In this document: positions 2,228 to 47,805 of the stretch, in pieces
How positions within the stretch are numbered: position 1 is the stretch's first letter
Layout: each line of letters starts with the position of its first letter
Assembly (NCBI GenBank): GCA_964563105.1
Contig: CAZLXM010000007.1
Span: forward strand, 253-64,252
Direction of reading: 5' to 3'
Source: an uncultured Bacteroidaceae bacterium
GTDB lineage: Bacteria > Bacteroidota > Bacteroidia > Bacteroidales > GCA-2748055
DNA: 64,000 nucleotides
Position numbers and translations under genes: made by a program
The notes under the pieces: generated by a model
The model's input: the letters and a program-made list of their open reading frames with translations, nothing else
Databases searched by the model: none
What the model was told of the DNA's origin: nothing

Positions 2228-3277
2228 ATGAAAAAAAGTGATAATTATTCAAGACGAAATTTTTTGAAAAAGTCGGGAGCAGGTGCCGGATTGATCGGAT
2301 TAGGCAATTTTTCAACTAATTTAAGCACTATTGGATCAGAAAAAGTTCATAATAACATTAGGCTTGAAAAAAGATCTCCAAGAGTGGTCAGGGTCCTGAC
2401 CGTATCAAAGACTGGTACCAGTTTCTCAGCAGTGCCTTTTGGAAGAAATGAAGTTGTTCAGGGGGTTATTGATCGTATCAGGTTGGCAAGTGTTTATAAA
2501 CCTGATATTATTAGTATTTTTGAGCTTTTTAATGGCGCTCCTCCATCCGAAGCTCAGGAAGTTCCCGGTCCACTCACTAATACTATGGCTGAACTGGCAA
2601 AAGAACTAAATAGTTATATTATTTGTCCTTTGCATACAAAAGCAGGTTCAAAAGTTTACAATTCTGCTGTTCTTATTGACAGAGACGGATCAATATCCGG
2701 GCAATATAATAAATGCCATCCTGTTACAGGTGAAATTGCCGGAGGGGTTAGCCCTGGAGTCATTCCTCCTCCTGTTTTTAAAACTGATTTTGGTACAATC
2801 GGTATCCAGATATGTTTTGATGTAAACTGGATTGACAGATGGAAAGAACTAAAAGATCAGGGTGCTGAGATTGTTTTCTGGCCTTCTGCCTATCCCGGTG
2901 GCAGAATGCTTCCTGCCTATGCCTGGATGTTCAAATACTACATTGTTACTTCAACATGGCGTGACCCTGCTACTATCTATGATATGACCGGTGATATTAT
3001 TGCCAGTAGCGGTTTATACGAACGCTGGGCTTTTGCTTCACTTAATATGGAAAAAGCTTTTCTTGAAACAGTTACTGGTTATACTAACAGACTTAATGAT
3101 GCAAAAAGAAAATATGGTTCCAAACTTATTATAAAATATTATCATGATGAAGATTGGACCACTATAGAAAGTAATTCGCCGGATCTGTATATTAAAGATA
3201 TATTGAAGGAATATGACCTTGTTCCCCATTGGGATTATATAAAAAATGAAGAAATAGAGCAGGCAAAATTCCGTTGA
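2228..3277 (+). CDS. Carbon-nitrogen hydrolase (nitrilase-superfamily) protein with a Tat-type signal
   Basis: N-terminal SRRNFLKKSGAGAG twin-arginine motif. Candidate Glu-Lys-Cys triad contexts are IFELF, YNKCHP and GIQICFDVNW, plus FWPSAYPGG. A paralogue lies at 19652-20683. Confidence 0.8.
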   Translation: MKKSDNYSRRNFLKKSGAGAGLIGLGNFSTNLSTIGSEKVHNNIRLEKRSPRVVRVLTVSKTGTSFSAVPFGRNEVVQGVIDRIRLASVYKPDIISIFELFNGAPPSEAQEVPGPLTNTMAELAKELNSYIICPLHTKAGSKVYNSAVLIDRDGSISGQYNKCHPVTGEIAGGVSPGVIPPPVFKTDFGTIGIQICFDVNWIDRWKELKDQGAEIVFWPSAYPGGRMLPAYAWMFKYYIVTSTWRDPATIYDMTGDIIASSGLYERWAFASLNMEKAFLETVTGYTNRLNDAKRKYGSKLIIKYYHDEDWTTIESNSPDLYIKDILKEYDLVPHWDYIKNEEIEQAKFR

Positions 3278-3406: not shown

Positions 3407-4624
3407 ATGAAACATTTATTGATTTACATCTTATTAATTCCTTTATTGATGTTTCTTAGCTGTACTTCTACAGATAAATCTGAACCCTTTACTTTTAAAA
3501 TTCCTGCAGATTATCTTCTTGAGCCTGATGAAATTCCTGTATTCTGGAAAAACACTCTGGAAGAGGTGTCTGACATTCTGGAAAACACTGTTAAGCTTGG
3601 AGAAGTTAAGACAATAGGAACTTCCGCAGGTGGCAGACCAATTAAAGCAGTATTTTATGGCAGTCCACGTGAAGGTAAGGGCACTTCCACGTTCTCAGGT
3701 TCGCTTGGCTTTGGTGATGTCAGAGCCTATCGTGGTCCTGATCATGATAAAACTGTATATTTGGGTATGTCGGCCGTTCATGGGTTTGAGCTGGAAGGCA
3801 TTGTCGGGACTCTTAATCTGATTACTGTTCTTGAAACTGGTAAGGATCTGAGAGGAAAAGAATGGCCTGAAATTACTGAAGTTGCCGGGAAGGTTGATCG
3901 CCTTATAATAATACCCGTAATGAACCCTGACGGGCGCGCAAGAGTTCCTATAAAAATGGAGATACACAGGGGAAGTTCTAAAAATTATAAGATTAATGAA
4001 TTCCTAAATACCGGTGGATATGAAGATGGGTCCATGATAGGCTGGCCACAGGTTAAGGAGTTTATCCCGATGGATTTTACAAAATATGGATTTCCCGGAG
4101 GATATCCCAATGATGCAGGAGTAAATATCATGCATGATGATTTTTTTGGAGAGCGGCAACCTGAAACACAGGCACTGTTTGATCTTGTAGCAAAGGAAAA
4201 GCCCGATCTGATTTTTAATATGCATACAGGGGCACCCTTTCAAAACTACTTCATCCGTATGCACCGGCCTTTTGCCGAACCTGCTCTGACTAAAGCTTTT
4301 GAGGCTCTATATACCTGGGTTCATTCAGCACTTGCATTGATGGGCTTGCAAAGCACAAATGACCCGGCTATTGAAGCAGATCTTTCAGATGTTTACCAGG
4401 GGGCATATAATCTTGATGCAGCTCTCAATTTACACTGCGGAGCATTGAGTGTGGTTATCGAATCACCAAATCATGGTTTTTCCGGTACTAACAGGGCTGG
4501 AGAAACAGTTTTACAAACTCCTGAAATGATCCTTGATGCTCAATTGGCATGCCATCAGGAAGGAATGAAATTCCTTGCAGAAACGGGAGGCAGGTCAAAA
4601 TGGACTCCCGCAAGAAAAAGATAA
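3407..4624 (+). CDS. M14 (zinc carboxypeptidase-fold) family lipoprotein
   Basis: Lipobox LMFLSC. HxxE zinc motif in SAVHGFELEG, IIIPVMNPDGRA motif, and a later NMHTGAP His. Confidence 0.6.
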   Translation: MKHLLIYILLIPLLMFLSCTSTDKSEPFTFKIPADYLLEPDEIPVFWKNTLEEVSDILENTVKLGEVKTIGTSAGGRPIKAVFYGSPREGKGTSTFSGSLGFGDVRAYRGPDHDKTVYLGMSAVHGFELEGIVGTLNLITVLETGKDLRGKEWPEITEVAGKVDRLIIIPVMNPDGRARVPIKMEIHRGSSKNYKINEFLNTGGYEDGSMIGWPQVKEFIPMDFTKYGFPGGYPNDAGVNIMHDDFFGERQPETQALFDLVAKEKPDLIFNMHTGAPFQNYFIRMHRPFAEPALTKAFEALYTWVHSALALMGLQSTNDPAIEADLSDVYQGAYNLDAALNLHCGALSVVIESPNHGFSGTNRAGETVLQTPEMILDAQLACHQEGMKFLAETGGRSKWTPARKR

Positions 4625-4662: not shown

Positions 4663-6396
4663 TTGAAAAATTTTCAAAAAATCCTTCTTTTAGTGATTTT
4701 TGCCGGTTTGAGGCTTATTTCCCATGCCGATGAAATAAGTTATGAAGAAAACAGAATTATTTTTGTAGATAATTCTTTATCAGCTAGTTGCGAGAAATAT
4801 GACCTGAATACCAGGACTTGTGGAAAGGGTGATAATTTAGCATATACTGATCTTGAAACTGCCTGTTTGAATGCTATCCCCGGAGATCTTATTTTGATCA
4901 GAGAAGGAATATACAATGGCAGTAATAATAGAATTGTCCCCTTGAATTCCGGAATAAAGGAGAAAGAGATATATTTTAAAAATTATAATGGAGAAAAGGT
5001 TGTTATTACCTCTGTTGGAAGTGATTATGCTATATTTATTGAAGGGAAAGAATATATCACTATTGAAGGGCTTACTTTTACAGAAGTTTATGCTTTTGGG
5101 AGAATCATTGACTCAAACCATATTATATTAAGAAGGAATAATTTTCTTAATATGAATTCCAATCAATGGTTAGCTTTACATTTTGTTAACAGTAATTATA
5201 ACAAGGTTTTGGATAATACCCTTTATAGCGTTGGTATGGGTAGCGGAAAGGACAATCTTCAGTTTGTTTATTCAAATCATAATTTAATAGAAGGAAACCG
5301 CATCGAAAGCATAGGTCACGTATTATGGGCAATAAAATGCGGCTGTTTTAATGTGGTAAGAAATAATTATTTCTATAATCATAATCAGAAAATAGCTGAG
5401 GTTTTTGATTGCAATGATGGTACTACATATACTGTCAGACATACGCATGTGAATGCAACTAAATTTAATCTGATTGACAACAATATTTTTGCCTATACCG
5501 ATAAAGACAGAAAAAGAGAGAGAGACGGGCGTCCGGGCGGTCCATATAACGGAATACAATATGCCGGCCAGGATGGCATTATAAGAAGAAATGTTTTTTA
5601 CAATAATTTGGGTGGAGGACTCGGCTTAACGACTTATTTTGATGAGGCTGAATATAATACCGGAAACAGGGTTTATAATAATCTCTTTTATAAAAACGGG
5701 CATGGAGCAATAGATATCTCAGGTTCAGCAAGATATAGTTTTTCAGATAATATTTTGAAAAATAATATTCTTTATAAAAATTATTTTGCTAACTGGGATA
5801 ATGTGTATGATATTTTAGGTTATTCTAAGATTGATGGAAAACCTTTACAAATTCTGACATCAAGAAAAACGGCTGATTATCTTTTTGATAATAACAATAT
5901 TTTTAATAATGTTAAAGAAGAAAATCACCTTATTGCCAGTCTTGGTGAATATAAAACCCAGGATCCTGATGACAGGTCACTTCAATATTGGGAGAAGAAT
6001 TATCCTGATATATTTAAAAATAATTTACAGGAGGATCCTTTATTTATTGATACTGAAAAAAATGATTTCAGGCTACGGGCTGAAAGTCCTATGATAGATA
6101 AAGGTACGTTTTTAACGAAAACAACTTCATCAGGATCCGGCACCAGGGTTCTTGTAGAGGATGTGCGTTATTTTTATGATGGCTATGATATTGAAGGTGA
6201 AACAGGTGATTTGATACAATTTGAAAAGGGGGGCAGGGCCAGGATTGTTTCCATAGATTATGAAGCAAATATTTTGATTTTAGATAGGAACCTGATTTGG
6301 GACAAAGCGCAGGGAATAAGTCTTTCTTATTTTGGAAATGCTCCTGACCTGGGCCCTTATGAATTTACATCAGATCCGTCAGGTACGGGAGAATAA
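4663..6396 (+). CDS. Secreted right-handed parallel beta-helix repeat protein (pectin-lyase fold)
   Basis: TTG start and signal-like N-terminus. It has many repeats of the NN(I/L)(F/Y)xNN type (NNYFYNHN, NNIFAY, RNVFYNNLGGG, NNLFYKNGHG, NNILYKN). Confidence 0.65.
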   Translation: MKNFQKILLLVIFAGLRLISHADEISYEENRIIFVDNSLSASCEKYDLNTRTCGKGDNLAYTDLETACLNAIPGDLILIREGIYNGSNNRIVPLNSGIKEKEIYFKNYNGEKVVITSVGSDYAIFIEGKEYITIEGLTFTEVYAFGRIIDSNHIILRRNNFLNMNSNQWLALHFVNSNYNKVLDNTLYSVGMGSGKDNLQFVYSNHNLIEGNRIESIGHVLWAIKCGCFNVVRNNYFYNHNQKIAEVFDCNDGTTYTVRHTHVNATKFNLIDNNIFAYTDKDRKRERDGRPGGPYNGIQYAGQDGIIRRNVFYNNLGGGLGLTTYFDEAEYNTGNRVYNNLFYKNGHGAIDISGSARYSFSDNILKNNILYKNYFANWDNVYDILGYSKIDGKPLQILTSRKTADYLFDNNNIFNNVKEENHLIASLGEYKTQDPDDRSLQYWEKNYPDIFKNNLQEDPLFIDTEKNDFRLRAESPMIDKGTFLTKTTSSGSGTRVLVEDVRYFYDGYDIEGETGDLIQFEKGGRARIVSIDYEANILILDRNLIWDKAQGISLSYFGNAPDLGPYEFTSDPSGTGE

Positions 6397-6533
6397 TTAT
6401 ATAAAAGTTAATAAATCAGGATGTATTTTACTTTAGTTCTTTAAAAATTAAGCCTGATCTGCTTATAAAATAATCCAAATTTTATTAAAACAAAAGATAT
6501 ATTAGTTTAGCAGGAGCAGTTGTTGATCAGATA

Positions 6534-8321
6534 TTAATTATAAAGAACATAATACCAGAAAGTATTTCCATATTTTTCCTGTAATATCTTTTTTGCTACG
6601 TTCAGGTCATTGTTGAATTGCTCAAATGTCCGGTAAAACTGTTGAAAATTCCCCCTGATTTTTTTATTGATAGTTAGTTTGCCGAAAGGGCTTAATTCAG
6701 ATTCCGGCAGTGCCTGATAAACACTTAATGCTTCTTGTACGTGTACAGGTAATTCATTATAATCAAATAATGTGAAATTAGGAATATCATTAATTACTGC
6801 CAAAAAATCTTTTTTTAGAAGTAAAAAAGCTAACTTATATTCAAAAGCATGTTTATTAGGCGGATCATAGTTTAACATTGCTTCCAGATTAAGCAGTGGA
6901 TTTTGAATATCAATAATAAAATCTTCTTTGATTTTAATTTTTTTCTTTTCCCCCAATTCAGGATGTGCATTTACTGCTTTGTCATCAAATAGCAATTTTT
7001 CAAATTCCAATGCTTCTTTATTATAAAACAATGTTTTTTTAAGCAGTGAAATATATTTTGCTGCCATATAGTAGTTCCCATTAATTAGTTCAGTTTTAAT
7101 CAGCATTTTAATTCCCTGTGGAGTATATCCTTGCATTACCATATATTCAAAATTCCAGCGGTGGGCTTCATTAATTATTCCAATAGTATAATAAAAATAA
7201 CCGCCTCTTTTAAGAATTTCGCCTATACGTTCCCATTGAAGGAATAGGGTACTGTTTTCAACACTTTGGGGAAAATGGAATAACATATCGTTAAGCTTTC
7301 CTCTCTCACAAAGTGCAATATTTACTAAATAGCTTGTTAATCTGTTGTTCGATGGATGCTTTATGTTATAAGCTATCAATTCATCCATTTTGTTGTTATA
7401 AAATAATTTTTCCGTATGAAAATAATGCTTCAGGTTTTTATCATATTTTGTAATACAAATGATCAGAGAAATAACAATTATAAATATTGAAGTAAAATAA
7501 TTTTGAAACAAATTTTTGATTTTACTGCTTTTGCTAAATGCCGGAAAGAAATTGTTTAAGGCTAATGAAGTAATTATCAGTAACAGAAGAATACTAAAAG
7601 CCAATGTTTGATATCCAATATTTTGTATTGAAAAAGGGAAAATTAAAAGTTTACTGAGTGTTTGAAAAAAAAAGTATTCTTTTGAAAAATATATGTATAA
7701 AAAAGATATAAGCCAGAGGGCAATAACAACATAAATATCGTTTTTAATAGCATTCTTTATTAAATATATTGAGATCATTATAAATAAAAGCCATGCAAAA
7801 CTGCCTGTAAAAAAGAACCAAATGGGTGCAAAAATTACGATAAGCCATTTACATCCTTTTTTTAAAAATTTTATTATTAAATAAAAGATCAGTAATTGAA
7901 GAAATATTCCTATTGTATTGTAGATCAAAAATTGATAATTGGTATGCAGATAAAATAAAATACCTCCTGAAAGGAAGGGCAGGATAAATGAATTGCTTCC
8001 TCTGGAAATCAGATATATTTTATCGATTATAAAAACTGTTACAATAATAAATAATGAAATAATTATTGAACCAATAAAATGATAATAAAAAAAAGAAGAG
8101 ATAAAATTGCCAATATAGATTAATAATTTCCCCGGTGCATTTAAATGATCAGTAAAGAAGTTACGGTTTGTTATAAAAAGAGATATGTTTTCCTGATAAA
8201 AGAAAATATAATCTGTCATTAAATAAAAGAAGAAAAATAAGATCAGGAAAAATCCCGGGTAAACTAATAAACGACATAGTGTAAAAGTATCAGGTTTATG
8301 TTTTAATATATTTGCAGGCAT
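6534..8321 (-). CDS. Polytopic membrane protein (about 10+ predicted TM segments) with a C-terminal helical soluble domain; possibly DUF6057-type
   Basis: The first ~300 aa are very hydrophobic and rich in F/I/L. The last ~290 aa are hydrophilic (HYFHTEKLFYNNKMDE...GIINEAHRWNFEYMVMQG). An intact paralogue of identical length (595 aa) lies at 23301-25088. Confidence 0.6.
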   Translation of the reverse strand: MPANILKHKPDTFTLCRLLVYPGFFLILFFFFYLMTDYIFFYQENISLFITNRNFFTDHLNAPGKLLIYIGNFISSFFYYHFIGSIIISLFIIVTVFIIDKIYLISRGSNSFILPFLSGGILFYLHTNYQFLIYNTIGIFLQLLIFYLIIKFLKKGCKWLIVIFAPIWFFFTGSFAWLLFIMISIYLIKNAIKNDIYVVIALWLISFLYIYFSKEYFFFQTLSKLLIFPFSIQNIGYQTLAFSILLLLIITSLALNNFFPAFSKSSKIKNLFQNYFTSIFIIVISLIICITKYDKNLKHYFHTEKLFYNNKMDELIAYNIKHPSNNRLTSYLVNIALCERGKLNDMLFHFPQSVENSTLFLQWERIGEILKRGGYFYYTIGIINEAHRWNFEYMVMQGYTPQGIKMLIKTELINGNYYMAAKYISLLKKTLFYNKEALEFEKLLFDDKAVNAHPELGEKKKIKIKEDFIIDIQNPLLNLEAMLNYDPPNKHAFEYKLAFLLLKKDFLAVINDIPNFTLFDYNELPVHVQEALSVYQALPESELSPFGKLTINKKIRGNFQQFYRTFEQFNNDLNVAKKILQEKYGNTFWYYVLYN

Positions 8322-8331
8322 GGCAGAACTA

Positions 8332-9798
8332 TCAATTTGTTTGAATAGTTTCAGATTTTGCGGTTTTTCGGATTTCTCCGGGTGTTAATACTATTTTTCT
8401 TTTTGATAATTCAGGAATATTATAAGTTTTTAAATAGCTGTCATAAAATTCAGGATCTTTTTGTGGTAATACAAAAGCTTTACAACTTTCGCCATTTTCA
8501 TAAATATAAGATATATAAGGCCTGGCAGTTAATCCATCTATTCGTTTACTGCTAAAGGCCAGCCATTTGTTATTTGAAGACCATGAATGGTAACTTTCAG
8601 TATAATCGCTATTCAAAGACATTTTTGAAATTTCCATGTTCTCAAGGTTTAAGGAATAAAGATCAGCATCCTTATGCCAGATGGAAAAGCAACCATAATC
8701 ATGCAAAGTGAATACAAGGAAATTACCATTAGGGGAAATCCTTGGAAATGATACGCTTTTATTGAATTGGCCAAGAGCATCAAATATTAATTCAGGCAGG
8801 CCAAATGTTTGGCTTTCTTCATCAAAGGGAATTCTGTAAAGATTGTATTTAATATCCTGGTAGTCTAATTCTGATTCGGGGATATTTGCCCTGCAAAAGT
8901 ATAGATATTTTCCATCAGGCCCCCATTCAGGATATGTATCCATATACAGTTCCTTTTTGGGCAGATCAACGGGCGATATTTTATTTGAATCAATGTTATA
9001 AAGAATTAATGAGGAGGCAACATCAATAACTTCAACTTTTTTATTTTCCGATGCATGGAAAAGCTGACCAGTTTTATTACTTGAAAAAGCAATGAATTTT
9101 CCTGAAGGATGCCAACGGGGATAAACCGGATTGTATTTCATTTCCTCACTTTTCAGATTATATCTTTTTAATTTTCTGTCTTTATAGAAATATGTGTCCC
9201 CAAATGAGCCTCTTACATGAAAAAAGAAATCTGAATTATTTTTTGGATTAAATGTGTGGCAATTAATACAGTTATTATCAATAATTGAATTTTCTATTAT
9301 GGAATGAACTTTAAAATTTTCCAAACAACGCTGTTGAATATTTAAATCAACATAAGCTTCATAACCAGGATATAATAAACGGTAGCTCATATATGGGTCG
9401 ATCGGATCAGGGGCTATTTTCATTGTGAAAGGTTTAAAACTCTTCCATATTTCCTGATCATCTTTGCACAAAATTGTAATATGAAGCTCCTGGTTAATAT
9501 TATCATTAAGAATTTTTTTCCATTTTTTCATGGGGATAATGATCTTTCCATTTTTTGAAGATAAAACCATTAGAATATTACATTTGTTGGAAAATTGGGC
9601 AATATAACGGGAAGCTTCTTCTTTAATAAGAAAATTTAAAGGCGCGATATTTGGAGGTATGGTAATATCAATATAATCTGGTGTTATATGAGGGAACTCA
9701 GGAATGAGCCGGGCCTTTTCAACCGGGATCATTGAACAACCAAAAAAAAGCAGGAAAGCAAATGGAAATAAATATTTTCTAGTTAATATATTTTTCAA
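8332..9798 (-). CDS. Lipoprotein with a single CxxCH motif and a PD40/TolB-like beta-propeller-type C-terminal region
   Basis: Lipobox LLFFGC. CINCH is encoded at 9256-9270. Repeats of the WHPSGKFIAFSS / WGPDGKYLYF / ISPNGNFLVF / WSSNNKWLAFSS type resemble PD40 repeats. It sits 10 nt upstream of the membrane-protein gene. Confidence 0.55.
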   Translation of the reverse strand: MKNILTRKYLFPFAFLLFFGCSMIPVEKARLIPEFPHITPDYIDITIPPNIAPLNFLIKEEASRYIAQFSNKCNILMVLSSKNGKIIIPMKKWKKILNDNINQELHITILCKDDQEIWKSFKPFTMKIAPDPIDPYMSYRLLYPGYEAYVDLNIQQRCLENFKVHSIIENSIIDNNCINCHTFNPKNNSDFFFHVRGSFGDTYFYKDRKLKRYNLKSEEMKYNPVYPRWHPSGKFIAFSSNKTGQLFHASENKKVEVIDVASSLILYNIDSNKISPVDLPKKELYMDTYPEWGPDGKYLYFCRANIPESELDYQDIKYNLYRIPFDEESQTFGLPELIFDALGQFNKSVSFPRISPNGNFLVFTLHDYGCFSIWHKDADLYSLNLENMEISKMSLNSDYTESYHSWSSNNKWLAFSSKRIDGLTARPYISYIYENGESCKAFVLPQKDPEFYDSYLKTYNIPELSKRKIVLTPGEIRKTAKSETIQTN

Positions 9799-10235
9799 AT
9801 TTTTATTATTATATATATTGAATACAATATTTTCTAAAAATCTTTTAAAAGATAAATTTACAAAAAAAACTGCTAACTAATCTTAAAATAAGCCATATAT
9901 TATTGTTGCAGGCAGTCAGTTATTTTACTGTAATTCTATTTCTAAAACTCAATATGGCCCTAAAGGGTTGCTTTTTTCCTTTCCTGATAAAACAAGTGTT
10001 ATAATTCTTCGTATTGTATTTGGCCTAGAGAGACAATTATATAGTTTTCAGGATCAGGACATAAGTTTGGCGATTTTAAACTATGCATTGGTTAATGAAT
10101 TATATTACCGGGATACCGCCCATTTTTATGAAGACAGAAAAACAGGTGTGGTAAGTGAATAAAGAACAGGTTATAAGAGATTGAAGAGAGGATATTGTTC
10201 TTTCAACATAACTGAATGTCAGGAAAGGAGATTAA

Positions 10236-10365
10236 TTAGTGGTAGCCACGGGTTTTTCAAGAATAACATGCATGCCTGTTTTTAAGGCCCTAACTGCAAC
10301 ATCATGATGAAAGTTATCTGATAAACAAATATCTACAATAGAGATAATTATATGAATAAAATGTT
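10236..10365 (-). pseudogene. Short relic of a Gfo/Idh/MocA oxidoreductase gene
   Basis: The minus-strand translation reads ...IVDICLSDNFHHDVAVRALKTGMHVILEKPVATTN*. This matches the conserved xxH...A..AL.xGxHVxxEKP segment of the family. It is bounded by stops about 43 codons apart and has no start or Rossmann region. Confidence 0.5.
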
Positions 10366-10430
10366 AGCATGACAAAAAGGTTTTGCTTCAAATTAAGTCA
10401 ATTATCCTGTTAATTAAAATCGTAAATTGA

Positions 10431-12182
10431 CTAATTAATTATATTCCCTTTTGAGTAAACAACTTTGCCCCCGACAATTGTTGCTTCTGATTCGATTTCC
10501 TTTATATTATCTACCGGGCAGGTAAGAATGTCGTCAGTAAGAATAACCATATCAGCTAGTTTTCCCCCTTCTATAGAGCCTTTTAGCAATTCTTCTGAAG
10601 ATGCAAATGCATTATTAATTGTATACATTTTCAGGGCTTCTTCCCTCGTGATTGCCTGCTGCGGTTCAATTACAGTTCCTCTTTCTGTTTTTCTTGTAAT
10701 TGCTGACCACATACCAAGAAAAGGGTTATAAGGATTAATAGAAGCATTTGCATCCCATTTTACCATGTGGTCTGAACCGCCATTAACCATAACCCCTGCA
10801 TCAAATAATGAACGATATGGATGGAAAGTGCGGATCTTTTCTTCTCCCAATATCTGAAGCATTGCGTCAGCATCTTTATAGAACCATGCAGGTTGTGAGT
10901 TTGCATATACTTCTAACTCTTTCATTTTCTTTATAGCGTCCTGTGTATAAAAATTACCATGAATTATTGAAAATCGTTTATTTTTTATTGATTTTGATTT
11001 ATTTATTTCTTCATAAACATCAAGCAGGAGATCAACACCGCCACCACCGGTTGAATGGGCCGTAAAACTCCAGTTAAGTTCATTTGCAGCTGAAACTATA
11101 GAAAGAAGCTGTTCCCGGGAATAATTCAAAACTCCTCTGTATGAAGGATCTTCAATTCCAAAAATAGCTTGTGCTTTATCACCCCAAGGTTCACGCATAT
11201 ATGCAGTTCCGGTTAAAATTCCACCATCCAGAATAATTTTTAATGGTCCTGCACGAAGCCATTCGTCACCATCACCTGTTTTATATCCGAGATTTTTTAA
11301 CCTGGCGCTCACATTTTCTTTCGTAATACTGTCTCCTCCCATCCTTAACATTATATTCTGGTAAATGCGGACTGTAAGCTTCTTATTACGGATCAAATCG
11401 TTATACATTTGAGTAGTTTCAGGATCATCTGAACCCTGGCACAAACTGGTAATTCCATATCGGTTATATCTTTCCAACATTGCTTCAAGGGCACTCAATT
11501 TTTCCTGATAAGTTAATACACGGGGGGTGGGACGTTTCAGTAAGCGAAATGCCGAAGCCCTGATAAAACCAGTTAACATTCCTGTATTTTCATCCCGTAA
11601 AAGTCCCGGATGATTTGTTGCTTTGGAAATTCCGGAAGCTTTCATTGCTGCCGAATTAATCATGCCTCCATAAGTCCCGTCAAGAAAAACCGGATGAAAT
11701 GGTGCAACTTCATCCATTTCAGTAAGGGTAGGTGATCTTAATTCTAAAAGCCGCGTTGCAAAAAACTTTGGAAAAATTATCCATTGATCTTTCTCTTTAA
11801 TTGTTGTTTGTTCTTTTATCCAATCAAGAAGTTCTGCTATAGAATGCACGTCAGGTATTTCTTCATCAATTTCACTTAAAAAAGCTAATTCAGGATGTAA
11901 ATGTGATTCATTAAGACCAGGAATTACGGTCTTTCCTTTGAGGTCAATAATTTTAGTGTTTTTCCCGGAAAACTTTTTAATCCTGGAAGAAGATCCTACA
12001 TCAATTATCATATCCTGAGTAATAGCCACTGCTTCAACGATCCTGAAATTATCATCTACAGTTACTATTTTACCGTTTAATAATATCATATCTGCAGGAT
12101 GGGTCACTTTACATGCTGAAAGGATAAGTATAAAAAAAGGAAGAAAAAAGATTGATTTCATTAAATTATTAACTGATTTCAT
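10431..12182 (-). CDS. Amidohydrolase-family (Amidohydro_3/YtcJ-like) metal-dependent hydrolase lipoprotein
   Basis: Lipobox LILSAC. HxH metal motif in GLNESHLHPE, later FTAHSTGGGG and GGSDH motifs, and a length of ~580 aa typical of the YtcJ-like group. Confidence 0.8.
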   Translation of the reverse strand: MKSVNNLMKSIFFLPFFILILSACKVTHPADMILLNGKIVTVDDNFRIVEAVAITQDMIIDVGSSSRIKKFSGKNTKIIDLKGKTVIPGLNESHLHPELAFLSEIDEEIPDVHSIAELLDWIKEQTTIKEKDQWIIFPKFFATRLLELRSPTLTEMDEVAPFHPVFLDGTYGGMINSAAMKASGISKATNHPGLLRDENTGMLTGFIRASAFRLLKRPTPRVLTYQEKLSALEAMLERYNRYGITSLCQGSDDPETTQMYNDLIRNKKLTVRIYQNIMLRMGGDSITKENVSARLKNLGYKTGDGDEWLRAGPLKIILDGGILTGTAYMREPWGDKAQAIFGIEDPSYRGVLNYSREQLLSIVSAANELNWSFTAHSTGGGGVDLLLDVYEEINKSKSIKNKRFSIIHGNFYTQDAIKKMKELEVYANSQPAWFYKDADAMLQILGEEKIRTFHPYRSLFDAGVMVNGGSDHMVKWDANASINPYNPFLGMWSAITRKTERGTVIEPQQAITREEALKMYTINNAFASSEELLKGSIEGGKLADMVILTDDILTCPVDNIKEIESEATIVGGKVVYSKGNIIN

Positions 12183-14881: not shown

Positions 14882-17167
14882 ATGAAGCGAAGAATCTCAT
14901 TTAAATATCTTATTTATACAATTTTTATTCATTTTATCACAATAATTCCAATAGCAGCACAGGCAGTTTCAAAAATTGAATGGATGACCATTGATAATGT
15001 AGCTATCCCCATTCCCCCGGCAGAACATCCCCGGCTTTTCTTAATGGCTTCGGATGTAAATGGGATAAGAGCCAGATTAGAGCATCCGGTATTGAAATCT
15101 GTAGTTGATTCCTTACGTATTCAATCAGGCTATTCTCTCCAGTTGAAATTGGAATGGGATGCCATTCAGTATTTAGTTTCAAAAGACAAAATACTCGGAC
15201 GATCTATTATTGATTCTGCACTGATTTTATTGCAGCAAACAGAGTTGCCGCAAATGGGTGATGCTGCCCGTGTTACCGGAAGGATGATGGTTACCGGGGC
15301 TATTATATACGATTGGCTTTATCCTTTAATTACCAACAAAGAAAAAGATGTATTTATTAGAGAATTAATCCGCCTTGCAAAAACTTTGGAATGTGGGTAT
15401 CCGCCTGCTAAACAGGGATCTGTGACCGGCCATTCATCGGAAAGTTTTATTATGCGTGATATGTTATCAGCCGGAATAGCAATATATGATGAATTTCCTG
15501 AAATGTATGAACTGGCTGCTACCCGGTTTTTCCGTGATCATGTCCCTGTTCGTAACTGGTTATATAATGGCCATGCGTATCATCAGGGTGATTCCTATGG
15601 CCCCTTAAGATTTAGCTGGGATACTTATCCATTAATGATCTTTAGCAGAATGGGTGTGAATAATGTATATAATCCGGAACAACAATATGTTCCTTATTTT
15701 TATCTTTATACTACACGTCCTGATGGTCAGCGAATGCGTGCAGGTGATACTTACTTTCATTCCGGTCATGGTGCAACACATGGAAGACCATGGGATCAAT
15801 ATGTTGGCACTTTATTTACGGCTGGTTATTATAAGGACGGGATTTTACTTGATCAATTCCTCCGCCAGGGAGGCAGTGATGGAAAAGCTCATGGCAGGAT
15901 CAATCAAAGAGAATATATTTTCCAGTTTTTATGGCGGGATTTGGAATTGCAGGCTCAATCAATTACCACATTACCTCTTTCAAGATATTTTGGGCCTCCA
16001 TTTGGATGGATGGTGGCCAGAACAGGCTGGGATGAAAATTCTGTTATATCTGAAATGAAGATCAATGTTTATAATTTCAGTAATCATCAGCATTTGGATG
16101 CAGGGGCCTTCCAGATTTATTACAGGGGGCCTCTTGCTACAGAATCCGGACTTTATGCCGGAACCAGCGGTGCTTATGGAAGCCCTCATTGTAAAAATTA
16201 TTACTGGCGTACCATTGCTCATAATTCTCTATTAGTTTATGATCCTGATGAAAAATTTAGCCCGCGGGGTGATTTTGGAAATGATGGAGGGCAGCGTTTG
16301 CCAAATAACCGATATGAACCACTAAACCTGGAATCAATGCTTGATCCGGATAAAGGATATAAAACCGGTGAAGTATTGGCACATAGTTATGGTCCCTGTC
16401 TCAAAGAACCGGATTATACCTATATTAAAGGCGATATAACAGATGCCTATAGTACAAAAGTTAAAGATGTTAAGCGTTCATTTGTCTTCCTGAATTTGAA
16501 AAATAATAAAGTTCCCGCTGCGCTTATTATTTTTGATAAAGTTGTGTCCTCATCTCCTTCATTTAAAAAATACTGGTTACTCCATAGCATTGATGAACCG
16601 GAAATAAAAGGAAATGAAGTAACAATTATGAGAAGAGAACAAAAAGAAAACGGAAAACTGGTAAACATCAGTCTGATCCCTGAAAAGAATAATTTTGAAC
16701 TTAAATCTGTGGGAGGCCCTGGCAAAGAATTTTGGGTATTCGGCACAAATTATGAAAATGAAATGCGTGATGCCTCCGGCTTACATACCTATGAAAGAGC
16801 TGCATGGCGTATTGAACTTTCACCAAAATTCCCTGTAAGTGACAATTATTTTCTGAATGTTATGCAGGTGATGGAAAATAATATTAAAGAAATGCATGTG
16901 AGTAAGATCGAGGGTGATAAAATAATTGGCGTCCTGATTTTTGACAGGATTGTGTTTTTTAGTAAAAATTTGGACGAAATAAATTCATCGTTTACTTTTT
17001 CTATAAAAAAAGATGGTATTTTTAAAATTCTTATTACTGATTTACCTGCCGGGAAATGGAAAGTAATAAAGGATGGAGAAGTTATTATACCTTCAATAAA
17101 TGTTCGTGATCAGGAAGGAACTTTATATTTTGAAGGCAAAAAAGGAAATTATTCAGTTATCAGGTAA
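14882..17167 (+). CDS. Heparinase II-like polysaccharide lyase (PL21-type), copy 1
   Basis: Signal peptide present. Long motif matches to Pedobacter heparinus heparinase II as I recall it: VTGAIIYDW, LECGYPP, MRDMLSAGIAIYDEFPEMY, YHQGDSYG, NHQHLDAGAFQIYY, RTIAHNSLLVYDP, NDGGQRLP, DYTYIKGDIT, VPAALIIFDKV and KKYWLLHSI. Confidence 0.85.
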   Translation: MKRRISFKYLIYTIFIHFITIIPIAAQAVSKIEWMTIDNVAIPIPPAEHPRLFLMASDVNGIRARLEHPVLKSVVDSLRIQSGYSLQLKLEWDAIQYLVSKDKILGRSIIDSALILLQQTELPQMGDAARVTGRMMVTGAIIYDWLYPLITNKEKDVFIRELIRLAKTLECGYPPAKQGSVTGHSSESFIMRDMLSAGIAIYDEFPEMYELAATRFFRDHVPVRNWLYNGHAYHQGDSYGPLRFSWDTYPLMIFSRMGVNNVYNPEQQYVPYFYLYTTRPDGQRMRAGDTYFHSGHGATHGRPWDQYVGTLFTAGYYKDGILLDQFLRQGGSDGKAHGRINQREYIFQFLWRDLELQAQSITTLPLSRYFGPPFGWMVARTGWDENSVISEMKINVYNFSNHQHLDAGAFQIYYRGPLATESGLYAGTSGAYGSPHCKNYYWRTIAHNSLLVYDPDEKFSPRGDFGNDGGQRLPNNRYEPLNLESMLDPDKGYKTGEVLAHSYGPCLKEPDYTYIKGDITDAYSTKVKDVKRSFVFLNLKNNKVPAALIIFDKVVSSSPSFKKYWLLHSIDEPEIKGNEVTIMRREQKENGKLVNISLIPEKNNFELKSVGGPGKEFWVFGTNYENEMRDASGLHTYERAAWRIELSPKFPVSDNYFLNVMQVMENNIKEMHVSKIEGDKIIGVLIFDRIVFFSKNLDEINSSFTFSIKKDGIFKILITDLPAGKWKVIKDGEVIIPSINVRDQEGTLYFEGKKGNYSVIR

Positions 17168-17308: not shown

Positions 17309-19588
17309 ATGGAACCGGAAAATTTTAAATTGACAATAAATAAGCTTTTAATAATTATATTTATGCTGTTATCAGGTTGTAAGCATGATGACAATTTACT
17401 TACAGCTCAGCCTGAAACAGAGGTCCTATGGAAAAATATTGATACAATTGCAATTCCTCTTCCTCCTTCCATACATCCCCGCTTATATATAAACAGTACT
17501 GATGTTGCTGAAATGGGAACAAGATTAAAAAATCCTGTTTTACAACATATTGTTGGAAAACTAATTTCACAATCAGATAAAACACCGCAAAATCAGGTTG
17601 AATGGAATGCTATTTTTTATCTTGTAAATAAAGATAAGTCATTTGGAAGAAATATTATTGATTCTACTGCAGCTTTATTAAAAAGGACAGTGTTACCAGA
17701 TATCCTTGATGCAGCCAGGGTAACGGGGAGGATGATGGTAACAGGGGCAATAGTTTATGATTGGCTTTATCCCTTATTGAGCACTGCAGATAAAGAGTTA
17801 TTTATCAGTGAATTAGTTCGTTTAGCCAAAACTCTTGAATGTGGTTATCCGCCAACTAAACAGGGATCTGTAACAGGACATTCATCTGAAAGTTTTGTTA
17901 TGCGTGATATGTTATCAGCCGGCATAGCCATTTATGATGAATTCCCCGAAATGTATGAACTTGCTGCAACACGGTTTTTTCGTGAACATTTACCTGTCAG
18001 GAACTGGTTATATAACGGCCATGCCTATCATCAGGGTGATTCATACGGTCCTCACCGGTTTAGCTGGGATACTTATCCTTTAATGATTTTCAGTAAAATG
18101 GGATTAGATAATATATATAATCCCGATCAGCAGTTTGTACCTTATTTTTATATCTATACTACCAGGCCGGATGGCCAAAGGATGCGGGCAGGTGATACTT
18201 TTGCCCATAGTGCAGCTCCGGGAAGGCCTTGGGGTCAATATGCAGGTACATTATTCGCTGCGGGTTATTATAATGACGGAATTTTACTTGAGCAATTCCT
18301 TCGTCAGGGTAGAAGTGATGGTAACGAAAATATATTCCAGTTTTTATGGTGGAATACAGAACTGCAACCTAAGCCAATTAATGACCTGCCACTTTCCAGA
18401 TATTTCGGGCCACCTTTCGGATGGATGGTTGCCCGCACAGGGTGGGATAAAAATTCGGTAATTGCTGAAATGAAAATAAATGAATATAATTTTACCAACC
18501 ACCAACATTTGGATGCAGGGTCATTTCAGATATATTACAAAGGCCCCCTTGCCACTGAATCTGGTTTATATTCCGGAACTGACGGAGAATATGGAAGTTC
18601 TCACTGTAAAAACTACTATTGGCGTACAATTGCGCATAATAGTCTTTTAATTTATGACCCGCTTGAAAAATTCGGTTCAGGAAATGGTTATGGCAATGAC
18701 GGAGGACAACGCTTGCCAAATAATCGCTCTGAACCACGGAATCTTAATGTTATGTTAAATCCTGCAAATGGTTATAAAACAGGTGAAATTATTGCTCATG
18801 GATTTGGAGATTCCAGGGATAAACCTGATTATACCTACTTAAAGGGTGATATAACAAAAGCATACAGTTCAAAAGTAATTGAGCTGAAACGTTCTTTTGT
18901 CTTCCTAAACCTTAAAAATGACAATGTCCCTGCTGCTCTTGTAATATATGATAAAATAATTTCTTCGCAATCTTCATATAAAAAATATTGGCTGCTTCAT
19001 AGTATTGAGGAGCCTGTTTTACAGCAAAATAAAGTAATAATTAGTCATTCTGATATTGATGCAAATGGACGCCTTGTAAATATCTGCCTGATTCCGGAGA
19101 AAAATAATATGGAAATTAATGCAGTTGGAGGGCCGGGCAAAGAATTTTGGGTATTTGGAGTGAATTATAAAAATGATCCAAAATATATAAATCCAAATAC
19201 ATATGAAAATGCTGCCTGGCGAATTGAAATTTCACCTCTAGAAGCTTCTCAGGAAAACTATTTCCTAAATATAATGCAGGTAATGGAGAATCATGTTAAA
19301 GAACTGGATGTAAAAAAAGTAGAAGGTAATGATATTACCGGGGCAGTTATTGCAGATCGTATTGTTTTTTTTAGTAAAACCTCCGGTGAAATAAATTCTT
19401 CAGTTAATTTTAGTATTGAAGATGAAGGGAGTTATATGGTTCTCATTACAGATCTTGCACCCGGAAAATGGCAGATTTGGCGGGATGATAAGTTAATTGT
19501 TCAGAACGCTGAAGTAAAGGGCGAAGAAAAAGCACTATATTTTGAGGGATTAAAAGGGAAGTATGTATTAACAAAATTGCTTAAATAA
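17309..19588 (+). CDS. Heparinase II-like polysaccharide lyase (PL21-type), copy 2 (tandem paralogue, lipoprotein)
   Basis: Lipobox MLLSGC. It carries the same motif set as copy 1, with long identical runs such as AKTLECGYPP.KQGSVTGHSSESF.MRDMLSAGIAIYDEFPEMYELAATRFFR. Confidence 0.85.
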   Translation: MEPENFKLTINKLLIIIFMLLSGCKHDDNLLTAQPETEVLWKNIDTIAIPLPPSIHPRLYINSTDVAEMGTRLKNPVLQHIVGKLISQSDKTPQNQVEWNAIFYLVNKDKSFGRNIIDSTAALLKRTVLPDILDAARVTGRMMVTGAIVYDWLYPLLSTADKELFISELVRLAKTLECGYPPTKQGSVTGHSSESFVMRDMLSAGIAIYDEFPEMYELAATRFFREHLPVRNWLYNGHAYHQGDSYGPHRFSWDTYPLMIFSKMGLDNIYNPDQQFVPYFYIYTTRPDGQRMRAGDTFAHSAAPGRPWGQYAGTLFAAGYYNDGILLEQFLRQGRSDGNENIFQFLWWNTELQPKPINDLPLSRYFGPPFGWMVARTGWDKNSVIAEMKINEYNFTNHQHLDAGSFQIYYKGPLATESGLYSGTDGEYGSSHCKNYYWRTIAHNSLLIYDPLEKFGSGNGYGNDGGQRLPNNRSEPRNLNVMLNPANGYKTGEIIAHGFGDSRDKPDYTYLKGDITKAYSSKVIELKRSFVFLNLKNDNVPAALVIYDKIISSQSSYKKYWLLHSIEEPVLQQNKVIISHSDIDANGRLVNICLIPEKNNMEINAVGGPGKEFWVFGVNYKNDPKYINPNTYENAAWRIEISPLEASQENYFLNIMQVMENHVKELDVKKVEGNDITGAVIADRIVFFSKTSGEINSSVNFSIEDEGSYMVLITDLAPGKWQIWRDDKLIVQNAEVKGEEKALYFEGLKGKYVLTKLLK

Positions 19589-19651: not shown

Positions 19652-20683
19652 ATGACATATCAATCGAGAAGGAAATTTATGAAAAATGCATCATTTGGGG
19701 CGACTGCATTTGGACTATCTGGTTTTACACCTGCAGCCGGTAATTATGATAAAAAGGAAATTAAACGGATGCCCCGGGAAGTATGGATCGCAACTATTAC
19801 CCAGCATAATATCGGTGGTAATAATATCCGGGAATCCATCCAATCTGCATTAAGGCAGATGGAAAATGCCCTACCATTTAAACCTGATATCTATTGCCTT
19901 CCTGAAGCATTTCATGTTGCAGCAGTGAAGGGAGGGAGGCCGTCTCCTGAAATTTCTGCTGAAAATGGATCCGGAAATATTATAAACCCTTTTCAGGCAT
20001 TCGCAAAAAAGAATAACTGTTATGTGATATGTTCTGTTTATACTGTTGAGAGTGGGAAATATTATAATGCAGCTGTTATTATTGACCGCCAGGGTAAATA
20101 TATGGGTGAATATAGGAAAGTGAGGTTAACAGTGGAAGAGTTAAAATATTTAACTCCCGGGCCCCGGGATATTCCTGTGTTTCAAACTGATTTTGGAATA
20201 ATAGGTGTACAAATATGTTTTGATATTGAATGGCCCGAGGGATGGTCCCGGCTGGGTGATAAAGGAGCTGAAATGGTATTTTGGCCCTCTGCCTTTGCAG
20301 GTGGCAAGATGGTGAACACATATGCCTGGCAAAATCACTACTGTGTAATTTCAAGTACAAGGAAAAATACCAGTAAAATTTGTGATATTACCGGAGAAGA
20401 AATTGCAGTAAGCGGAAACTATAGTCCCTGGGGAGTATGTGCTCCGGTAAATCTGGAAAAGGCATTTCTTCATAGCTGGCCGTATAATAAACATTTTCCT
20501 GAAATAGAGCGCAAATACGGCAGGAAAGTTAGGATATATACTCTGCATGAAGAGGAATTTTCAATAATAGAAAGTTTATCGATGGATATAAAGGTCGCAG
20601 ATATTATGAAAGAATTTGGTTTAAAAACGCATCGTGAACATAAAAAAATTGCTGAATTAGAACAAAATAAATTTTATTCCTGA
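19652..20683 (+). CDS. Carbon-nitrogen hydrolase family protein with a Tat-type signal (paralogue of 2228-3277)
   Basis: SRRKFMKNASFGATAFG twin-arginine motif. Triad contexts are CLPEAFH, YRKVRL and GVQICFDIEW, plus FWPSAFAGG. It starts 63 nt after heparinase II-like copy 2. Confidence 0.8.
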   Translation: MTYQSRRKFMKNASFGATAFGLSGFTPAAGNYDKKEIKRMPREVWIATITQHNIGGNNIRESIQSALRQMENALPFKPDIYCLPEAFHVAAVKGGRPSPEISAENGSGNIINPFQAFAKKNNCYVICSVYTVESGKYYNAAVIIDRQGKYMGEYRKVRLTVEELKYLTPGPRDIPVFQTDFGIIGVQICFDIEWPEGWSRLGDKGAEMVFWPSAFAGGKMVNTYAWQNHYCVISSTRKNTSKICDITGEEIAVSGNYSPWGVCAPVNLEKAFLHSWPYNKHFPEIERKYGRKVRIYTLHEEEFSIIESLSMDIKVADIMKEFGLKTHREHKKIAELEQNKFYS

Positions 20684-20737: not shown

Positions 20738-23236
20738 ATGTTTTCAAAAATAAACTTTATGAGAAATTTACTTTTTATTCCTTCCAAAAAAGATCATTTT
20801 TTCTTTAATAAAAATAAACATTCAGGCAGAAATGTATTCTCGACTTATTTAATGATTTCCTTATTTTTTCTTATAATCACTTCTTCATGTAACTCTCCTG
20901 CAGAAGATAAACAAATACTGCCTGAAGCTGAACCTAAGCCTTATACTGTTCGTTATGCACCTGCTGACGGAAGTGTTTCACAGATTGACCCACCGGCTTT
21001 TATCTGGTTACCTGTTGATAAAAAAGAAGAATATATACTCCAATATAGCACTAAAGCTGATTTTAAACCTGAGCAGACTAAAACAATAAACTGTAGCCGG
21101 ACTATTTTTGTCCCCCATGAAACTATGGGTTCCGGAAAATGGTACTGGCGTTATGGAATTAAAGATGACCAGACAGGTAAATTGATTTTTAGCAAAGTCC
21201 GTAAATTTACTATTGTTAAGAATGCCGTGGAAGTGCCTTTTCCGGATGTGAAAAAAGTAATTGATGATCTTAAAGGTATCCGCCCGCGTAATTTAGTCAG
21301 AAATGAAGATATTCATCATTTCAGGGAGCTTGGGGCAGGCCCTTTAAAAGGATATCTTGATAATCTGAAAAGAAATGGAAATAAATTTTTAGGCGAGCCA
21401 TTACATCCTGAACCGGATTTTTTATCTGAAGACAGGGAGCAGAAAATAGTTGATTTTGTTAAGATCATGAGGTCCACCAGAGTATTTAACAGTGGAATAT
21501 CAGAGTGTGCCACTCTTTATTTATTAACAGGTGAAGAGAAATATGGGATGGAAGCGAGGCGCCGGATGTTACATCTTGCTTCATGGGACCCTGAGGGAAG
21601 CACAAGCCTTTTTCATAATGATGAACCCGGTCATGAAATAATTAGTGTTATTGCAAGGGCTTATGACTGGATATATCCGCTTCTTGACCAGAATGATAAA
21701 GATAAAATATGTAAAATGCTTGCTGTAAGGATTCCGCAGCTTTATAAAGTATTAATTAATAAACCTTTCGAAATACATCCTTACGAGTCACATGCAATGG
21801 GTTATTTTATAGGGGATTTACTGGAGGCTTGTATTTGCATGGCAGATGAAATTCCGGTTGAGGAAATGTTGGAATATGTTTTACTTCAACTCTGGTCTCC
21901 CTACTTTCCTCCTTATGGCGGAGATGATGGTGGTTGGTGCGAAGGGCCTTCATACTGGCAATGGAGTACAGCAGTTTTTTTACGTATTTTTAGTCTTGTT
22001 GAACAAAATTGCGGTGTGGATCTGACCAATAAACCATGGCTGAAAAATACTGCATTTTTTAAACTATACTGTAATCCTCCATATTCAAAAATGTCACCCT
22101 TTGGTGATGGACAGTCTGGGGTTCCAGGTTTATCAGGAATAATGTTTAAACTTGGGGTAACATACAATAATCCTTATGCTTTGTGGTATGATAAACAGCT
22201 AAATGCTAAACCACAAGGAGTTGAACGTTTTAAATATTTCATCGAAACAGAAGATACAGGCAAATCACCCGAGGATCTCCCACAGGCACATTGCTTTCAT
22301 AATATTGGCCTGGCTTGTATGCACAGCGATTTGGCAAATGGTGAAAATAATGTCCATTTTATGCTTCGAAGCAGTCCATTTGGGGCAATAAGCCATGCAT
22401 ATGCTGATCAAAATGCTTTTGTCCTCTTTGGATATGGCGAACCGCTCGCTATTGCTTCAGGTTACTATCCTTATTATGACAGTCCCCATCACAGAAGTTG
22501 GACATGGCATACAAAGGCATCAAATAGTATTTTGGTAAATGGTGAAGGACAGAAAATACGTAACTGGGATTCACGCGGGAAAATAACTGATTTTAAAACA
22601 ACGGATTATGCCCATTATGCTATTGGAGACGCCACAGAGGCTTATTTTGGAAGTGTTAAACGTTTTTACAGGCATGCACTTTTTCTTAGACCGACTATTC
22701 CTGAAGATGAACCTGTAATTATACTTTATGATGATGTTGCAAGTCAGGATCCTTCTATCTATGACTGGTTGCTTCATTCTATTGAAAAAATGCAGGCAGA
22801 TGAACAAAATAAATCGGTAACCATAAGGAGGGGAGCTGCCGGACTGTTTGTTCAATTCCTTACACCGGAACAATTAAAATTTTCCCAAACAGATGAGTTT
22901 ACTGTCCCCCCTGAATCTGATAATATGCCTAATCAATGGCATTTAAATGCGCAAACAACTGTTGCTGATACAGTTGCAAAATTTATAACAGTATTAATGC
23001 CTTTCCGGCAAGGTCTGGAACAAAATCTTCCGCGAATAAGGTTTATTGATAAAGCCGGCTGGGTTATCATTGAGTTAACAAGCTCACATACAACACAGGT
23101 GGTAGCATTCCGGACAGGGGCTAAACCGGGGACGTCCATTAAAATTGGAGATTTTAAAACCAAAGCTGATGTTGCGGCTACTGCATATGATTTGCAGGGT
23201 AACGTAAGGGCCTCAATACAAATTGAAAATAAATAA
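20738..23236 (+). CDS. DUF4962 / heparinase II/III-family polysaccharide-lyase-like protein
   Basis: The N-terminal PPAFIWLPV...YILQYSTKADF...KWYWRYG pattern resembles DUF4962. A helical toroid-like middle is followed by a C-terminal ISHAYADQNAF...ASNSILVNGEGQ region like the heparinase II/III C-domain. The start is uncertain: M39 at 20852 gives the lipobox-like MISLFFLIITSSC. Confidence 0.7.
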   Translation: MFSKINFMRNLLFIPSKKDHFFFNKNKHSGRNVFSTYLMISLFFLIITSSCNSPAEDKQILPEAEPKPYTVRYAPADGSVSQIDPPAFIWLPVDKKEEYILQYSTKADFKPEQTKTINCSRTIFVPHETMGSGKWYWRYGIKDDQTGKLIFSKVRKFTIVKNAVEVPFPDVKKVIDDLKGIRPRNLVRNEDIHHFRELGAGPLKGYLDNLKRNGNKFLGEPLHPEPDFLSEDREQKIVDFVKIMRSTRVFNSGISECATLYLLTGEEKYGMEARRRMLHLASWDPEGSTSLFHNDEPGHEIISVIARAYDWIYPLLDQNDKDKICKMLAVRIPQLYKVLINKPFEIHPYESHAMGYFIGDLLEACICMADEIPVEEMLEYVLLQLWSPYFPPYGGDDGGWCEGPSYWQWSTAVFLRIFSLVEQNCGVDLTNKPWLKNTAFFKLYCNPPYSKMSPFGDGQSGVPGLSGIMFKLGVTYNNPYALWYDKQLNAKPQGVERFKYFIETEDTGKSPEDLPQAHCFHNIGLACMHSDLANGENNVHFMLRSSPFGAISHAYADQNAFVLFGYGEPLAIASGYYPYYDSPHHRSWTWHTKASNSILVNGEGQKIRNWDSRGKITDFKTTDYAHYAIGDATEAYFGSVKRFYRHALFLRPTIPEDEPVIILYDDVASQDPSIYDWLLHSIEKMQADEQNKSVTIRRGAAGLFVQFLTPEQLKFSQTDEFTVPPESDNMPNQWHLNAQTTVADTVAKFITVLMPFRQGLEQNLPRIRFIDKAGWVIIELTSSHTTQVVAFRTGAKPGTSIKIGDFKTKADVAATAYDLQGNVRASIQIENK

Positions 23237-25088: not shown

Positions 25089-25112
25089 TGTAACAAGTTT
25101 CTAAACAATCAT

Positions 25113-47194: not shown

Positions 47195-47776
47195 TTATTT
47201 TATATTTCTTGGAATTGCTGAAGTAAAAAGGAAAAAGGAGATGTTATCAGAAAGTGGAAGAAATTGATATTCAAGTTTTCCTCCGGTCTTTCTTTTTATA
47301 TCAATAAATCCTAATCCTGCTCCGCCTTTTTTTGATATTCTGCCTTCTTTCAATTGTTTCTTATATAATTCGTTTAACTCATCTTTTTCAAGCGAATTAA
47401 TTTTTTCGATAAATTTGCGAAGTGGATTTACTCTTGAATTATTTATTAGATTTCCTGTAACAACATGGTATTCTGATTTATTTACACTAATCATTAATAG
47501 GCCTTTATGAATATTTCCTGATGCAGATATTGAAGGTATTAAAGCATGCTTTGTTATATTTTGCAGACATTCAATCATAACATGATATACTTTTTTCTGT
47601 ACGATTTCAGATTCATCTTCCCTCGAAAGTTTATCTTCTGTTACTGAAGAAAATGTTTTAATTAACTGATGATTAATATCTCCTTCATATGCCATTGTGA
47701 TTTCATATTCTTTCATCCCGTTATATAAGTCATATAAAAACTTCAGGAAATTGCAGCAATTTTTATTTGAATTCAT
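47195..47776 (-). CDS. SiaB-like protein kinase (GHKL/anti-sigma-kinase-like ATPase fold)
   Basis: Pattern YEITMAYEGDINHQLI...VYHVMIECLQNITKHA...KKGGAGLGFIDIKRKTGGKLEYQF. It ends 1 nt upstream of the siaC-like gene. Confidence 0.75.
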   Translation of the reverse strand: MNSNKNCCNFLKFLYDLYNGMKEYEITMAYEGDINHQLIKTFSSVTEDKLSREDESEIVQKKVYHVMIECLQNITKHALIPSISASGNIHKGLLMISVNKSEYHVVTGNLINNSRVNPLRKFIEKINSLEKDELNELYKKQLKEGRISKKGGAGLGFIDIKRKTGGKLEYQFLPLSDNISFFLFTSAIPRNIK

Positions 47777-47805
47777 TTATTTTATAATTAAATCTGCAAC
47801 AAATA

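Follow-up and report, generated by a model that had tools for sequence, protein, structure and literature searches.

Among described systems, three stand closest to the two-gene module analysed here: TolB, the lipoprotein monohaem c-type cytochromes, of which ActE of Alternative Complex III is an example, and the GT-C glycosyltransferases with C-terminal TPR domains (the TMTC, PMT_2 and DUF2723 types). The module lies in a 64,000-nucleotide stretch of DNA from an uncultured Bacteroidaceae bacterium (contig CAZLXM010000007.1), referred to below as the window, and consists of a gene for a lipoprotein with a Cys-x-Asn-Cys-His (CxNCH) motif and a gene for a polytopic membrane protein, which is a full-length member of DUF6057, a Pfam family without an assigned function. 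The lipoprotein shares with TolB an N-terminal domain, a PD40 propeller and a periplasmic location, but it differs in being a lipoprotein with an invariant CxNCH that is paired or fused with DUF6057. With membrane-tethered monohaem cytochromes the module has in common Sec export, a lipid anchor, a single CxxCH and a polytopic membrane partner; however, the lipoprotein lacks the class I cytochrome fold and carries its motif inside a propeller blade, and conserved ligands for quinone or haem are missing from its DUF6057 partner. The GT-C/TPR enzymes resemble DUF6057 in gross layout, with a polytopic N-terminal half followed by an extracytoplasmic helical-repeat C-terminal half, but no sequence, hidden Markov model (HMM) or fold similarity to them was found, nor was a conserved catalytic acid.

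We read the pair as encoding an obligate, periplasm-facing complex that would combine a DUF6057 scaffold with a haem-bearing propeller lipoprotein and be tied to uptake, and we hold this reading tentatively, judging its chances to be somewhat under even. The features of the first copy of the pair (copy 1) in the window are:

8332-9798 (-), CxNCH β-propeller lipoprotein gene, intact, an open reading frame (ORF) of 488 aa
9736-9798 (-), signal peptide and lipobox of the lipoprotein, residues 1-21 with Cys21 (from sequence and conservation)
9415-9711 (-), N-terminal β-sandwich of the lipoprotein, residues ~30-128, with the conserved PDYxxVTIPPNIAPLNF (from the secondary structure of the model)
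9256-9270 (-), C177-I-N-C-H181 (CINCH, residues 177-181; derived from ORF coordinates)
8404-9393 (-), PD40-type β-propeller of the lipoprotein, residues ~136-465 (Pfam, AlphaFold2 (AF2), Foldseek)
8322-8331 (-), spacer of 10 nt between the genes, the DUF6057 gene being downstream of the lipoprotein gene
6534-8321 (-), DUF6057 membrane protein gene, an ORF of 595 aa
7398-8288 (-), DUF6057 membrane domain, residues 12-308, ~9 helices (AF2 helices and hydropathy)
6537-7397 (-), DUF6057 all-helical, TPR-like domain, residues 309-595 (AF2, Foldseek, Pfam), placed in the periplasm by way of the fusion protein P0344 described below

The two genes of copy 1 probably form one transcription unit. A sigma-70 promoter scan of positions 6300-10500, by a method ill suited to Bacteroidota, did no better on the sequence than on shuffles of it. 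The 632-nt spacer preceding the lipoprotein gene contains, at 10232-10318 (-), a remnant of ~28 codons (DNFHHDVAVRALKTGMHVILEKPVATTN, then a stop) that resembles the NAD-binding region of Gfo/Idh/MocA oxidoreductases.

The linkage of the lipoprotein to DUF6057 is not due to chance. When species-representative genomes were scanned with DUF6057 as the seed, 80 loci emerged, all of Bacteroidales/Marinilabiliales type (Mariniphaga, Draconibacterium, Tangfeifania, Maribellus and many metagenome-assembled genomes), and the lipoprotein gene was found immediately upstream of DUF6057, on the same strand, in 75 of the 80. The remaining five comprise three loci that are cut at a contig edge and two that have ~1 kb of upstream sequence but no lipoprotein gene. 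A metagenome scan seeded with the lipoprotein (alignment A5) also gave 80 loci, many from the human gut. Where there was enough flank to judge (~70 of these), DUF6057 was directly upstream of the lipoprotein gene in every case, the others being cut at a contig edge; this gene order is the opposite of that in the species genomes. The DUF6057-first order is also seen in distant lineages of high GC content (59-70%; one of them was assigned to Armatimonadota by its bin), in which the two genes overlap by 4 nt. Tandem arrays of two pairs occur in Parabacteroides distasonis-type contigs and of three pairs in the contig L088. Five proteins, P0344, P0319, P0376, P0284 and P0309, are single-polypeptide fusions of DUF6057 followed by the propeller, and the 1138-aa P0344 is a full-length fusion. 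In P0344 the propeller follows the DUF6057 C-terminal domain without an intervening membrane segment, which places that domain on the periplasmic side.

An earlier note on this DNA, made from the letters alone, had proposed that the pair is a conserved, uncharacterised two-gene envelope module, and had named synteny in other genomes beforehand as one test of the idea. The genes are indeed adjacent in other genomes, in both orders, and the natural fusions reinforce the link; the coordinates that it gave for two genes 10 nt apart and for a recurrence of the pair at 23301-26268 are all correct. Two individual loci deserve separate mention. At L001:11490-12440, in the genome to which L026 also belongs, one pair is intact but for the gene of an IS1595-family transposase that has inserted between lipoprotein and DUF6057. 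In the GC-rich contig with three DUF6057-lipoprotein pairs (L088:1-10548), the lipoprotein heads are 42-47% identical and the membrane partners 31-38% identical.

The lipoprotein begins with MKNILTRKYLFPFAFLLFFGC, and its lipobox ends ...LLFFGC21, the signal peptide and lipobox together marking it for Sec export. C21 is invariant in alignment A2 and at least 90% conserved in the diverse alignment A3. Pfam matches PD40 to the lipoprotein with an E-value of 2.2e-15 (56.6 bits against a cut-off of 20.9) in three stretches, all downstream of the CINCH motif, as the earlier note had described. An AF2 model built with a 42-sequence alignment had a predicted local distance difference test (pLDDT) score of 92.5 and a predicted template modelling (pTM) score of 0.90, and consists of a β-sandwich (~30-128) followed by a propeller of six or seven blades (136-465). 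The top Foldseek match in the PDB was TolB (4pwz_B, E=9e-15), the arrangement of N-terminal domain and propeller included, and further matches were to the propellers of S9 and prolyl oligopeptidases and to the oligogalacturonate lyase 3pe7 (E=3e-7). The prediction of a TolB-like propeller for the lipoprotein is thus a confident one.

This fold raises the alternative that the pair is a structural module of the Tol-Pal kind, in which the envelope near SusCD would be tethered or organised by a propeller of the TolB type together with a TPR domain resembling CpoB, and the role of CxNCH would be purely structural. TPR-like partner domains do recur, and TolB is the best fold match; however, the lipoprotein scores 32 bits against the TolB equivalog model (TIGR02800), which has a cut-off of 343, and tolQRA and pal were not found in the window or the related loci; on both grounds it was rejected as TolB proper. 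In addition, the occurrence of several paralogous pairs per genome, together with an invariant set of Cys, His and Arg residues, suggests chemistry over tethering. We regard the structural alternative as quite unlikely.

The motif itself is strictly kept. C-x-N-C-H was found in 150 of 150 diverse lipoprotein representatives (33-45% identity), and the earlier note had correctly placed it at 9256-9270 and recognised it in the degraded second copy. Generic PD40 features aside, the residues invariant in 42 diverse lipoproteins are P48, W93, R140, R157, C177, N179, C180, H181 and R196; N50, I51, A52, P53 and F56 are at least 90% conserved in the diverse alignment. At the local composition, ~7e-4 occurrences of CxxCH are expected in 488 aa, and among 753 unrelated ORFs of the related loci only eight had a CxxCH, all of them NapC/NirT-type fragments or a TPR-fused paralogue of the lipoprotein. 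This paralogue, of 943 aa, has the same N-terminal domain and PD40 propeller at 25% identity; hhalign (probability 99.9%) matches its CANCH to CxNCH, and a TPR array of ~430 aa forms its C-terminal part. In some genomes it is encoded just downstream of the pair (L026:11826-14657 (-); also L014, L038, L048 and L050). Homology of its TPR array to the DUF6057 C-terminal domain was considered but found no support (hhalign probability 1%).

A CxxCH in a Sec-exported protein of bacteria that make c-type cytochromes is the canonical signal for haem attachment. The hosts can make such cytochromes, since NapC/NirT-FGE genes are present in the same loci as the pair and NrfA is carried by Bacteroides and Parabacteroides species (PMC4257093). 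No cytochrome c maturation genes were found within the window. In the Prolixibacteraceae-type loci, the gene for a NapC/NirT tetrahaem cytochrome fused to an FGE-sulfatase domain is conserved beside a SusC gene; the fusion is encoded at L011:17341-18876 (-) and in 20 other loci.

Several observations weigh against haem. In the AF2 model, residues 177-183 form the first strand of blade 2 and pair with 191-196, at a local pLDDT of ~90. Known haem c sites use a helical turn, and residues i and i+3 of a β-strand point to opposite sides. With its cysteines on opposite faces of a strand, CINCH is thus a poor fit to a haem c site, and equally so to a single metal site or a CxxC disulphide. No cytochrome c family in Pfam or NCBIfam matched the lipoprotein, so that the cytochrome assignment which the earlier note had put forward for checking was not borne out by Pfam, whereas those to DUF6057 and PD40 were. 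Haem proteins were absent from the Foldseek matches in the PDB. Finally, no second axial ligand is strictly conserved, H194 being present in 37 and H230 in 38 of the 42 sequences, although a five-coordinate haem is possible. Kinship with hydrazine synthase or other haem-propeller enzymes (PMC12758564) was considered and dropped, none being among the fold matches. We rate the binding of haem c by CxNCH at just under an even chance.

The main rival to haem is a propeller with a binding or catalytic function and a Cys/His centre that holds no haem. Here the complex would be the same, but CxNCH would be a centre for a metal (Fe, Zn or Cu) or for redox-active thiols, and the propeller would bind imported oligosaccharides or peptides in the periplasm or act on them as an enzyme, possibly in the manner of metal-dependent PL22 propeller lyases or of the propellers that gate S9 peptidases, with DUF6057 anchoring it or passing its product on. 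The position of the motif in a strand of a confidently predicted blade agrees with this, as do the fold matches to TolB, to S9 and prolyl oligopeptidase propellers and to 3pe7. The three invariant arginines would suit anionic sugars, and the neighbours of the pair include lyases, a sulfatase, GH123, a fucosidase, M64 and M28 peptidases and SusCD. However, a single metal site or disulphide fits the modelled strand no better than haem does, the motif is the canonical haem signal in its setting, and the lipoprotein has no sequence match to a characterised lyase or peptidase family. On balance we think a non-haem centre rather unlikely.

The membrane partner matches DUF6057 (PF19529) over nearly the whole 569-position profile, with 405.5 bits for copy 1 (6e-121, profile positions 13-569) and 397.5 bits for copy 2 (1.7e-118, positions 8-569) against a cut-off of 29.8. 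Its AF2 model is of lower quality (pLDDT 71, pTM 0.59) and has ~9 membrane helices (12-308), two short helices after the first transmembrane helix (TM1) and an all-helical C-terminal half, so the earlier description of a polytopic protein with a TPR-like soluble half was accurate. The same note had compared this layout to GT-C glycosyltransferases and O-antigen ligases. As an enzyme of that type, DUF6057 would act with a lipid-linked donor on the outer side of the inner membrane, its TPR-like domain presenting the lipoprotein or an envelope glycan as acceptor. The polytopic N-terminal half, the short helices after TM1 and the C-terminal helical-repeat domain are suggestive of this, and within Bacteroidota there is a Glu after TM1 (Q43-E44). 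The resemblance did not survive comparison. Pfam at E<=10 on 32 DUF6057 members gave DUF6057 itself and weak TPR/ARM-like matches only, with no GT-C and no Wzy_C; the DUF6057 profile found nothing relevant among PDB sequences at E<=10, and no solved GT-C; and the best Foldseek match of the model (with the model scores given above) had E=1, the weak matches being TPR proteins.

Conservation within the family points the same way. Across phyla the only invariant positions are Gly, Pro, Ala and Leu, and no polar residue, acidic ones included, is conserved family-wide. Q43/E44 and C338 are invariant in Bacteroidales and lost in distant members, E44 being conserved only within Bacteroidota and lost in L084-L087. 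In distant members the C-terminal domain alone aligns (~25% identity), and the membrane domain is the least conserved part. The GT-C or O-antigen ligase assignment was thus rejected by Pfam, the PDB profile search, Foldseek and residue conservation across phyla, and we consider it very improbable. Paralogous DUF6057 copies diverge faster than the lipoprotein heads (31-38% against 42-49% identity). With no family-wide polar residues and this fast divergence, an anchor or scaffold fits better than an enzyme, and that is what DUF6057 looks like. A point against this is that residues 343-400, the most conserved stretch in Bacteroidales (W363...E392), are also the worst modelled (pLDDT <50) and could hide a lineage-specific catalytic site. 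Poor modelling of 343-400 would also fit a region that folds only against its partner.

In the favoured reading, that of a scaffold with a haem-bearing propeller, the products of the two genes would form an obligate 1:1 complex at the periplasmic face of the inner membrane. DUF6057 would serve mainly as a membrane anchor and docking scaffold, through its ~9 poorly conserved transmembrane helices and its periplasmic TPR-like domain. The lipoprotein would be the conserved working part, with its invariant Cys-x-Asn-Cys-His flanked by three invariant arginines. On the simplest chemical reading, a c-type haem would be attached covalently after Sec export by the cytochrome c maturation system of the host, making the lipoprotein a monohaem cytochrome on a propeller scaffold, and redox chemistry or ligand binding may then take place at the haem/arginine site.

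What the complex might act on is suggested by its genomic surroundings. Each copy in the window is convergent with a lyase-type gene, as the earlier note had pointed out: copy 1 with that of a β-helix protein at 4663-6396 (+) and copy 2 with that of a heparinase II/III-like protein at 20738-23236 (+). The connection with glycan loci extends beyond the window. In P. distasonis-type contigs, and also in L152-type contigs, the genes run co-directionally as SusC-SusD-DUF6057-lipoprotein(-DUF6057-lipoprotein). At L167:5814-16933 a gene for an extracytoplasmic function (ECF) sigma factor, the pair, a FecR-type anti-sigma gene, SusC and SusD follow each other on one strand, and in 53-61 of the Prolixibacteraceae-type loci the pair and SusCD converge. 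Outside Bacteroidota, the Armatimonadota contig L087 has the pair within an operon of GH141/β-helix and sugar-ABC genes. Further neighbours of the pair are genes for GH123, a sulfatase and a fucosidase, and genes for M28 and S9 peptidases with GH2. The repeated presence of the module in SusC/SusD loci of Bacteroidota suggests that it probably acts periplasmically on, or in response to, an imported substrate. Against a general tie to uptake, many pairs are flanked by housekeeping genes, so the SusCD link is lineage-specific, and no neighbour of the pair is universal across lineages. A wider conserved operon was considered and rejected, since the GFO/IDH/MocA, AP_endonuc_2 and lactonase genes and the NapC/NirT-FGE gene are conserved as neighbours in Prolixibacteraceae-type loci only; no orthologues of them were found beside the window copies.

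The second pair, at 23301-26268, is partly decayed:

23301-25088 (-), DUF6057 copy 2, intact, an ORF of 595 aa, 63-64% identical to copy 1
~25109-26268 (-), lipoprotein copy 2, a pseudogene (tblastn of copy 1 against the region, and ORFs)

By tblastn, the pseudogene has a first frameshift near 25892-25897 (around residue 125), lacks ~97 aa in frame (roughly residues 203-299) and shifts frame again near 25173-25186 (around residue 463). It keeps the CINCH motif at 25725-25739, as derived from ORF coordinates. With the lipoprotein broken and DUF6057 whole, either this module is in early decay or the second DUF6057 serves the first lipoprotein.

Other genes in the window recur around the two copies. 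CN_hydrolase genes lie near both (2228-3277 and 19652-20683, 38% identical to each other), as do M14 carboxypeptidase genes (3407-4624 and 27796-29079). The tandem heparinase II-like genes at 14882-17167 and 17309-19588 are 66% identical. A cluster at 47195-54181 (-), unrelated to the pair, encodes a DUF6272 protein, a GAF-PAS-SpoIIE phosphatase, a small membrane protein, a GAF-PAS protein and a CheR-type methyltransferase.

The family is large, with >5,600 clusters at 90% identity in one search and 479 strong clusters at 50% identity. One Parabacteroides distasonis cluster by itself comprises 815 sequences, and index entries for it occur in 1,461 blocks of the assembly collection. The searchable literature held no relevant mention of DUF6057, PF19529, a PD40-plus-CxxCH protein or the pair. 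DUF6057 was already catalogued in Pfam, and its obligate pairing with a CxNCH propeller is not recorded in the sources that could be searched. There is a real chance that the pair has no characterised analogue. The bolder proposal is that of an unrecognised class of envelope machine, with a haem c or Cys/His-metal centre in a TolB-like blade, held on a TPR-like membrane scaffold and used for redox or sensing functions on substrates imported by SusC/SusD, widespread in Bacteroidota, gut species included, and present in several other phyla; this we consider doubtful.

The pair occurs in common human gut Bacteroidales, and hosts available in culture include P. distasonis, Draconibacterium orientale, Tangfeifania diversioriginum and Maribellus maritimus. 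Should the head bind haem, the lipoprotein would be a c-type cytochrome built on a propeller, and it would bring a redox component to SusCD uptake loci, which have so far been explained by hydrolases, lyases and transporters only. Even without haem, the strictness of the pairing, the existence of fusions and the invariant Cys, His and Arg residues point to a missing and testable piece of envelope biology.

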